Below are positions 10,142-11,101 of a stretch of 64,000 bases of DNA, piece after piece. The translations under genes were made by a program, and so were the position numbers. The first letter of the stretch is position 1, and each line of letters starts with the position of its first letter. Source of the stretch: an uncultured Verrucomicrobiota bacterium (GTDB lineage Bacteria > Auribacterota > JABMQX01); contig CAZXGF010000010.1 of the NCBI GenBank assembly GCA_964640185.1, positions 64,162 to 128,161 of the forward strand. Direction: 5' to 3'. The notes beneath the pieces are model-generated. The model searched no databases. It saw nothing but the letters and a program-made list of their open reading frames with translations, and was not told the origin of the DNA.

Positions 10142-11101
10142 CTACCTGTACTTTTCAACGATCTTCAGCACTTCTGCTTGGGTCAGCTTGCCATAGAGGT
10201 CCTCTCCGATGGTCATAACCGGCGCCAGGCCGCAACACCCGATGCAGTTGACAGTTTCCAGGGTAAAAGCCATGTCCTCCGATGTCTCACCGGTTGCTAT
10301 GCCAAGTGCTCGCTCGAGCGTCTCAACAATGAGGGGAGCGCCTTTAACATGGCAGGTCGTCCCCATGCAAACGGTGACGATGTGTTTCCCTCTCGGCTTG
10401 AGGCTGAAGGAGGCGTAAAAAGTAGCTATCCGGTAAATCAGGCTTAGAGGGATATCAAGCTGGCGAGCTAAATAGCGCAAGACATCTTCGGGAAGATAGT
10501 TGTAGCTTGAGTTGATGCTCTGCAAGATGGACACTATTGGTCCCTTTTCGCCACGGTGTTCATGCAGAATCTCGTCCACCCTCACCCGGTCCTCCGCTGC
10601 GAGCTCAACCTTCTTTTTCTCCTCTGGCTTCAGCACATATATTTGGTTCCTTACAGGGCAGATGCCCATACACTCCCCGCAGCCGGTGCACTTGTCCTCC
10701 TCAACGAAGCGGGGACGCTTTTTGAGGGTTGCCTGAAAGCGTCCGGGACTTCCCTCAAGCCTCTCCACATGCGCCAGGGTAATCACCTCGATATCCTTAT
10801 GCCTCCCGATTTCCACGAGACGGGGGGCCATAGTGCACATTGCGCAGTCATTCGTCGGGAAGGTTTTGTCAAGCTGGGACATCACCCCCCCAATGCTGGG
10901 TTTGTTATCCACCAGATAAACCTTGAATCCTGATTCGGCGAGGTCGAGGGCGGCTTGCATACCACCGATCCCCCCGCCCACGACAAGAACGGCGCCAACT
11001 TTGCCGTTTCTTCGTTGACGGTTATCGCTCATTAAATGTTGGTCCTTTGCAAAACCTCTACCCGGCAATCGCCGGCGCCTATCTTCGCTCAGCCCTTTCA
11101 A
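10142..11101 (-). CDS. fusion protein: an HdrA-like N-terminal FAD-binding fragment joined to a NuoE-like [2Fe-2S] domain
   Basis: N-terminal half: [21 protein letters not shown]...[11 protein letters not shown]...[12 protein letters not shown] (HdrA-type dinucleotide fold plus a 4Fe-4S site). C-terminal half: [10 protein letters not shown]...[12 protein letters not shown] (NuoE signature). The start overlaps the upstream gene stop in an ATGA arrangement. Confidence 0.7.
   Translation of the reverse strand: [319 protein letters not shown]

Follow-up and report, generated by a model that had tools for sequence, protein, structure and literature searches.

The stretch of an uncultured Verrucomicrobiota bacterium analysed here (the window: 64,000 nucleotides of contig CAZXGF010000010.1) contains, at 10142..11032, a gene for a 296-residue protein in which a fragment of HdrA, a subunit of heterodisulfide reductase, is fused to a HydC/NuoE-type (BfuC) subunit, as indicated by Pfam, PDB matches and orthologs (296 codons and a stop; all window features are on the minus strand unless the plus strand is named). 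We propose, with a probability of about 0.8, that this protein is a bridging subunit shared by two redox modules, a cassette of the Hnd/HydABC type having interrupted a tandem hdrA gene. The remainder of the interrupted HdrA would reside in a protein of 1088 residues encoded 5 kb downstream at 1761..5027 (hereafter the giant); the bridging subunit, widely conserved and probably functional, would then belong to a split HdrA/Bfu hybrid. With somewhat better than even odds, the result is a naturally split flavoprotein, in which a Hnd/HydABC-type segment lies inside hdrA and in which one flavin adenine dinucleotide (FAD) site and one 2x[4Fe-4S] domain are made from two Bfu-subunit polypeptides.

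An HdrA fragment fused to a HydC/NuoE-type domain

The HdrA piece spans residues 15-130 (10643..10990) and matches residues 143-258 of HdrA in solved structures (8rvv_A, E=7e-43; 5odc_A, E=2e-36). It opens with a GGGIGG sequence (residues 19-24), the dinucleotide-binding GxGxxG motif in the βαβ fold of a thioredoxin reductase (TrxR)-like FAD domain, which is invariant among orthologs, and Pfam finds FAD-Rossmann matches at residues 15-67 (FAD_oxidored, NAD_binding_8 at 15-53). It further carries the Cys63/Cys66 pair of a redox-active CxxC loop and, at Cys115-Cys125, the first CxxCxxCxxxCP motif of the ferredoxin domain inserted in HdrA; this is the sole motif of its kind in the protein, in agreement with a single Fer4 motif (Pfam, residues 108-131). 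An acidic, Pro-rich linker of 20 residues follows (131-150; 10583..10642), which varies in length and sequence among orthologs. The remainder (151-296; 10145..10582) finds its best PDB matches in HydC of bifurcating hydrogenases (8a6t_C, E=2e-47), with complex-I NuoE at about 1e-23; PF01257 is complete in it (152-296, E=5e-48, profile positions 1-145 of 145), and the [2Fe-2S] ligands Cys222, Cys227, Cys263 and Cys267 (CxxxxC...CxxxC) are invariant among orthologs. The chimera of an HdrA fragment and a NuoE-type domain, which an earlier note had read from the letters of this DNA, is thus upheld: the open reading frame is present and the domain matches are far above chance. Two of its details change. 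The fragment is HdrA-derived as claimed, but it represents the first segment of the TrxR/FAD domain and the first half of the ferredoxin insert, not the N-terminal domain of HdrA; and the C-terminal part is of the NuoE type as claimed, but comprises about 145 residues, a helical bundle plus a thioredoxin fold, instead of about 120.

A complementary gap in the giant protein

The giant combines a NuoG/HydA-type (BfuA) N-terminus, a truncated HdrA unit (unit 1) and a complete second HdrA unit (unit 2). Residues 1-190 (4458..5027; Fer2_4, Fer4_Nqo3) carry a [2Fe-2S] site and 2x[4Fe-4S] (CMLCGRCVRMCEE, CQVCGACAFICPTG), and residues 7-187 are of the BfuA type when compared with the PDB by phmmer (9mqx_A, E=3e-45; HydA1, E=2e-36). 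The remainder of unit 1 occupies residues ~192-515 (3483..4454; HdrA residues 257-513), of which 194-452 correspond to HdrA residues 257-510 in the same search. Unit 2 (526-1088; 1764..3452), assigned from Pfam, PDB matches and the Cys inventory, consists of a cluster domain at the N-terminus, an FAD domain of its own with GGGISG and no ferredoxin insert, and a 2x[4Fe-4S] domain at the C-terminus; by phmmer, residues 527-758 match HdrA 2-234 and residues 900-1080 match HdrA 468-644.

The motifs of the two proteins are complementary. Unit 1 in the giant has the CxGxR..C..CC cluster motif (Cys330, Cys343, Cys347 and Cys348) and no GxGxxG; the giant as a whole has two FAD-proximal CCxxxxK motifs and one GxGxxG, its FAD-Rossmann Pfam matches lying at 672-712 only, that is, in unit 2. 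The residues K409 and E356, which in HdrA of M. thermolithotrophicus are reportedly critical to the bifurcating flavin (PMC12054007), align with K353/E300 in unit 1 and K840/E801 in unit 2. The 296-residue protein has neither the CxGxRDx6-8CSxxCC [4Fe-4S] motif nor these flavin-N5 residues (K409/E356). HdrA homology ends at about HdrA residue 258-260 in the 296-residue protein and restarts at about 257 in the giant, so that the boundaries abut within about 3 residues. Each protein also holds an orphan ferredoxin motif, the first motif (Cys115-Cys125) in the 296-residue protein and the second in the giant (C230-x9-C-x2-C-x3-C247, that is, Cys230, 240, 243 and 247, partnerless within that chain), and the two may form one composite domain. 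The Cys169 motif of the giant, proposed as the first ferredoxin motif of HdrA by BLAST/HMMER alignment, was rejected: it bears a HydA/NuoG signature with a CPTG tail and has its partner at Cys128, the pair CMLCGRCVRMCEE (128) and CQVCGACAFICPTG (169) being of the HydA/Nqo3 type and covered by Fer4_Nqo3 (124-182). Because unit 1 of the giant lacks precisely the segment present in the 296-residue protein, we read the HdrA half of the latter as one piece of a split HdrA that is very probably complemented in trans. Judged by motif content, the 296-residue protein alone is not a complete HdrA; together with the giant it is.

At the sequence level, the two proteins are colinear with unsplit tandem HdrAs. 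Residues 7-126 of the 296-residue protein align to residues 2-121 of one such protein, P0158 (72% identity), and residues 169-1086 of the giant align to its residues 110-1012 (58% identity). When residues 1-127 of the former were joined to residues 197-1088 of the latter, this chimera query matched many single-chain proteins named 'heterodisulfide reductase subunit A' (1005-1050 residues) with 58-62% identity over 97-100% of the query. These matches belong to the tandem 'type II' HdrAs, a type described for archaea (PMC12054007) and recognized by two TrxR-like FAD domains in one chain, whereas unit 1 is here divided over two polypeptides. An AlphaFold2 (AF2) model of the spliced unit 1, computed with 25 unsplit homologues as alignment (predicted local distance difference test score, pLDDT, 77.9; predicted template modelling score, pTM, 0.79), superposes on HdrA chains with TM scores of 0.88-0.89 and a root-mean-square deviation of 2.4 Å over 435-451 aligned columns; the predicted fold shows no part missing or duplicated in the spliced unit. 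Unsplit tandem HdrA paralogues are also found beside the split operon in two genomes, an archaeal one and a Desulfatiglandales one (L023, 18379-20838 and L024, 17775-20747, respectively).

The fragment might nevertheless be a cofactor-less adaptor that has lost flavin binding and only attaches NuoE to the giant HdrA as a dock or tether, perhaps carrying a single FeS cluster. This would fit with the fact that neither the CCxxC cluster motif nor the K/E flavin residues nor the second ferredoxin motif is found in the fragment by itself. However, (i) the orthologs keep the FAD-binding GxGxGG, the acidic end of β2 and the CxxC pair unchanged from phylum to phylum, (ii) exactly these elements are missing from the giant, (iii) unsplit homologues hold them in one chain and (iv) a lone CxxCxxCxxxCP motif is unable to make a standard two-cluster domain. 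We consider such an adaptor improbable. The earlier note had suggested an adaptor or linker of this kind: the linking role stands, as the protein joins the NuoEF module to the giant HdrA, but the supposed inability to bind FAD is at odds with motifs that are invariant and complementary to those of the giant.

Conservation and gene start

The full-length fusion (290-326 residues, 63-100% identity) occurs in more than 120 clusters at 90% identity. When 15 diverse members are aligned, conservation is highest in the HdrA fragment, where GxGxGG, QAALDLA, DKTFPTN(D/E)CxMC and CTGC..C...CPV are invariant. The distribution was obtained from a scan of species-representative genomes: among the matches listed, the fusion is present in Melioribacter (Ignavibacteriota), Acidobacteriota (Sulfotelmatobacter and others), Latescibacterota, Sedimentisphaerales (Planctomycetota), Spirochaetota, Fibrobacterota, Cloacimonadota and several Desulfobacterota, as well as in two archaea, one of them an Altiarchaeales genome. 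Gene order is kept in at least 10 phyla, archaea included, all loci with enough downstream DNA having the arrangement [HdrA-N::NuoE]-HndB-like 2Fe-2S-NuoF-(optional regulators)-[NuoG-N::HdrA-C::HdrA]-MvhD(-MvhG). The motif balance of the giant is equally constant: two CCxxxxK motifs and one GxGxxG were counted in all 16 distinct orthologous giants, against one and zero in a single-HdrA variant of 597 residues.

The mechanical open reading frame (10142..11101) is longer than the gene and opens at a TTG abutting the stop codon of an upstream HTH_17 gene. Translation almost certainly begins at the ATG at 11032, which yields the 296-residue protein, because (i) gene calls on 18 public contigs from several samples have exactly this product (P0001), (ii) the N-termini of orthologs line up with this ATG in the 15-member alignment and (iii) a Shine-Dalgarno-like AAGGA is located about 10 nucleotides 5' of it. 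The 23 Arg-rich codons previously taken as the beginning of the protein are intergenic, crossing the 65-nucleotide spacer 3' of the stop of the HTH gene; ortholog starts and gene calls mark 11033..11101 as a non-coding 5' extension, a spacer that contains the AAGGA.

The odd architecture alone could raise the suspicion of an assembly or frameshift artefact, or of a pseudogene decaying after a duplication. The chance of this is negligible, given an identical product on 18 contigs, full-length clusters that extend down to 63% identity, an intact reading frame and conserved catalytic motifs. The existence of orthologous fusions in other genomes, which the earlier note had left to be established, is confirmed in many phyla, and the clusters refute the alternative of two separate genes joined by error or of codon decay; the idea of a decayed duplication fails on the fragment being the most conserved part of the protein, its GxGxGG, Cys63/Cys66 and first ferredoxin motifs included.

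Proposed insertion at the ferredoxin domain of HdrA

In a sister variant, the HdrA that is divided, again at this position of the ferredoxin insert, is a single (type I) one; the loci belong to Bryobacterales, Terriglobia and Clostridiales (L036, L055, L061, L067 and L075; in L075 at 5422-14435). There, a free-standing protein of 281 residues consists of the HdrA N-terminal cluster domain and the Rossmann piece, ending just past CTGCGQCWNICP. It is followed by genes for DRTGG, HATPase, a HydS-like [FeFe]-hydrogenase sensor (488 residues, Fe_hyd_lg_C), DRTGG, PHP and HATPase proteins, then by separate genes for a 159-residue NuoE, HndB and NuoF, and last by a 587-residue NuoG-N::HdrA-C protein without any Rossmann motif, MvhD and MvhG. 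Because the sister variant retains the N-fragment as an unfused gene, it argues strongly that the fragment would be needed to complete the downstream flavodomain, whether NuoE is attached or not. The same site receives yet another module in the HdrL-type protein P0198 (1483 residues), in which a GltD/NfnB module separates PQAVP from the second Cys motif in the ferredoxin insert of unit 1. Such HdrL-type proteins (about 80 similar matches of about 1480 residues to the chimera query) are one continuous chain; the GltD module is thus continuous in HdrL, in contrast with the split caused by the Bfu cassette at the same insert. From these sequences, the ferredoxin insert of HdrA looks like a recurrent docking or insertion site for NAD(P)H modules.

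We propose that a cassette composed of hndA/nuoE, hndB, hndC/nuoF, regulators and the 5' part of hndD/hydA entered a type II hdrA within the ferredoxin insert, both junctions becoming in-frame fusions. An insertion is suggested because the order HdrA-N, hndA-hndB-hndC-(regulators)-hndD 5', HdrA-C is its expected outcome. The 296- and 1088-residue chains would then rebuild one FAD site in unit 1, the former providing the ADP-binding part and Cys63/66 and the giant providing Lys353, Glu300 and the proximal [4Fe-4S] cluster, together with a composite 2x[4Fe-4S] ferredoxin domain to which each chain would bring one Cys motif. In HdrA, and in BamE, a subunit of class II benzoyl-CoA reductase (BCRII; PMC13518236; 10.64898/2026.04.10.717634, clusters E5/E6), the low-potential branch runs through the inserted ferredoxin domain, and the rebuilt domain may likewise form the exit by which low-potential electrons leave the HdrA flavin. 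HydC/BamG of HydBC-type modules contacts BfuA/BamI through its N-terminal helical bundle (10.64898/2026.04.10.717634). With such an exit and the HydC helical bundle on BfuA, both junctions would converge, wiring the HdrA arm to the BfuA clusters and to the flavin mononucleotide (FMN) of BfuBC; in other words, it is at the split site that the low-potential arm would be hard-wired to the chain of clusters in BfuA and to the NADH/ferredoxin core of NuoE/NuoF (BfuBC). As in Mvh-Hdr, electrons would enter or leave the HdrA flavin through MvhD and MvhG(A). The whole would be a [NiFe]-hydrogenase-linked double-module oxidoreductase, with an HdrA-type FAD and a HydBC-type FMN, that exchanges electrons between H2, NAD(H) and ferredoxin; for relatives with HdrCB encoded upstream, a thiol/disulfide acceptor may be a further partner.

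Several points weigh against this proposal. Two-chain assembly, FAD binding and activity are deduced from sequence, and the pairing of Cys115-Cys125 with the 230-247 motif of the giant, rather than with 128 or 169, follows from family signatures. The AF2 model was built on an artificial single chain and so merely restates the homology; predicted from the single sequence, the chimera reached a pLDDT of 32. No HdrBC genes adjoin the operon in the window; many related loci have HdrC/HdrB-like genes immediately 5' of the split-HdrA operon. Finally, the insertion is one of several possible histories; a crude neighbour-joining tree interleaves split and unsplit tandem HdrAs and does not separate single from multiple origins. 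The same split HdrA, complemented in trans, could also have arisen from an ordinary gene fission followed by two independent fusions, and both the interleaved tree and the L075-type loci, with their unfused N-fragment and different cassette order, are consistent with it. On the other hand, the breakpoints agree within about 3 residues in both polypeptides and both variants, and the order HdrA-N, hndA-hndB-hndC-hndD(5'), HdrA-C is what a single insertion would produce. We therefore regard fission as possible but rather unlikely, and favour the insertion of a Hnd/HydABC-type cassette.

Comparison with known systems

The closest known system is BCRII of Geobacter metallireducens (BamBCDEFGHI), a Bam-Bfu complex (PMC9304861; cryo-EM preprint 10.64898/2026.04.10.717634). 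As at this locus, both module types are represented: in BCRII, a HydBC-type NADH/ferredoxin module (BamGHI) forms one complex with a fused HdrA dimer (BamE) and with the MvhD-like adaptor BamF. BamE, described as a 'fused HdrA dimer', resembles the unsplit tandem HdrAs (10.64898/2026.04.10.717634); it begins directly with the TrxR1 Rossmann fold, as does the 296-residue protein, and its Cys59-Cys62 pair is the equivalent of Cys63/Cys66. BCRII differs, however, in having separate intact subunits, BamG being a plain HydC and BamI contacting the C-terminal ferredoxin domain of BamE, whereas this locus has a split HdrA unit 1 whose two junctions, both at the inserted ferredoxin domain, are covalent fusions. 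Also, neither tungsten AOR-type BamB/BamC nor the HdrD-like BamD is encoded in the operon (49-11556), where the Mvh hydrogenase genes for MvhD and MvhG are present instead.

Next come type II HdrA, with which the two proteins are colinear, and HdrL or type III HdrA with inserted GltD, where HdrL shows that an NAD(P)H module is accepted by the same insert of unit 1 (PMC12054007; Desulfobacterium autotrophicum HdrL, PMC2702500). Type II HdrA and HdrL are single polypeptides, whereas here a multi-gene Bfu cassette divides the host flavodomain over two polypeptides. The HydABC, HndABCD and NiFe-HydABCSL enzymes (8a6t, 7p5h, 7t2r) share the HydC/HndA-type C-terminal domain, the order hndA-hndB-hndC-hndD(5') and a BfuB with an extra N-terminal 2Fe-2S and a C-terminal 2x[4Fe-4S], and the DRTGG/CBS-HATPase/PHP regulators of this locus resemble the regulator sets of HydABC [FeFe]-hydrogenase operons. 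Compared with HndA, an HdrA fragment is added at the N-terminus and, compared with HydA/HndD, the H-cluster domain is replaced by HdrA sequence. MvhAGD-HdrABC of methanogens (5odc, 8rvy) shares the HdrA fold, the K409/E356 equivalents and the partners MvhD and MvhG; many relatives have HdrCB genes upstream. In this locus, however, HdrA is tandem and split, and its ferredoxin insert is fused to the Bfu module instead of reducing free ferredoxin or polyferredoxin.

Electron-bifurcating enzymes set energetic limits for anaerobic life. The building blocks of this locus are all known, namely the Bfu family, type II HdrA, HdrL and Mvh-Hdr; the part that would be new is the flavodomain split combined with a double in-frame fusion. 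No description of an HdrA-N::NuoE fusion or of a split HdrA was found in the literature searched, to which the Appel et al. 2021 review did not belong. Two bifurcation modules within one complex have been called previously unreported for BCRII (10.64898/2026.04.10.717634), and the present locus indicates a second family uniting both modules, taxonomically broad and joined through the split of the HdrA flavodomain. If this is true, there is a widespread undescribed class of [NiFe]-hydrogenase-linked supercomplexes, in which the HdrA-FAD and HydBC-FMN bifurcation centres would be covalently interlocked and wired unlike those of BCRII, the only known two-module enzyme. The analysis delivers a defined gene set (the 296-, 127-, 597- and 1088-residue proteins plus MvhDGA) and corrects the annotation of proteins that bear generic database names, 'NADH:ubiquinone oxidoreductase subunit E' and 'FAD-dependent oxidoreductase'.

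Neighbouring genes

Downstream of the fusion gene, the operon encodes an HndB-like small thioredoxin-like [2Fe-2S] protein of 127 residues (9747..10130; Pfam), whose position is conserved in orthologous operons, and a NuoF/HydB-type (BfuB) subunit of 597 residues (7926..9719; Pfam, operon comparison) with an N-terminal thioredoxin-like 2Fe-2S domain, an FMN/NADH site, NADH_4Fe-4S and a C-terminal 2x[4Fe-4S] domain. By its domains, the locus encodes a BfuBC core, a NuoE-like subunit with an adjoining NuoF-like subunit of full BfuB layout, plus a BfuA-type NuoG N-terminus. In several orthologous operons (L004, 11373-14564; L007, L009, L015 and L025), the NuoF-like subunit has about 1060 residues, with a GltD-like part (Fer4_20 and Pyr_redox_2) in place of the C-terminal ferredoxin domain, which suggests an extra NADPH site. 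A regulatory cassette lies mid-operon (5040..7915; Pfam, operon comparison) and comprises genes for DRTGG (7562-7915), CBS+HATPase (6622-7539), DRTGG (6259-6609), PHP (5522-6265) and HATPase (5040-5507) proteins; it is optional, being present in some orthologous operons and absent from others. Directly 3' of the giant gene, as in orthologous operons, is the gene for MvhD, a [2Fe-2S] adaptor of the FlpD family (1337..1753; Pfam, E=2e-56), and further downstream that for an MvhG-like [NiFe]-hydrogenase small subunit (49..999; Pfam, operon comparison), the large subunit being expected beyond the window edge. Between these two, a 69-residue gene with no Pfam match is called in L001 (19709-19918, corresponding to about 1115-1324 of the window, minus strand).

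Immediately upstream of the operon, an HTH_17/MerR-like regulator (11098..11556; Pfam) has a Cys-rich C-terminal half (CEDC...C...CPGPCEEC) and could be a metal or redox sensor; it adjoins the operon also in L001 and L002. A divergent cluster on the plus strand (12957-22455) encodes malate dehydrogenase, succinyl-CoA synthetase (SucCD), a four-subunit 2-oxoacid:ferredoxin oxidoreductase, an HdrC-like protein (16180-16590), an HdrB-like CCG protein (16601-17506) and a canonical HdrA of 661 residues (20470-22455).

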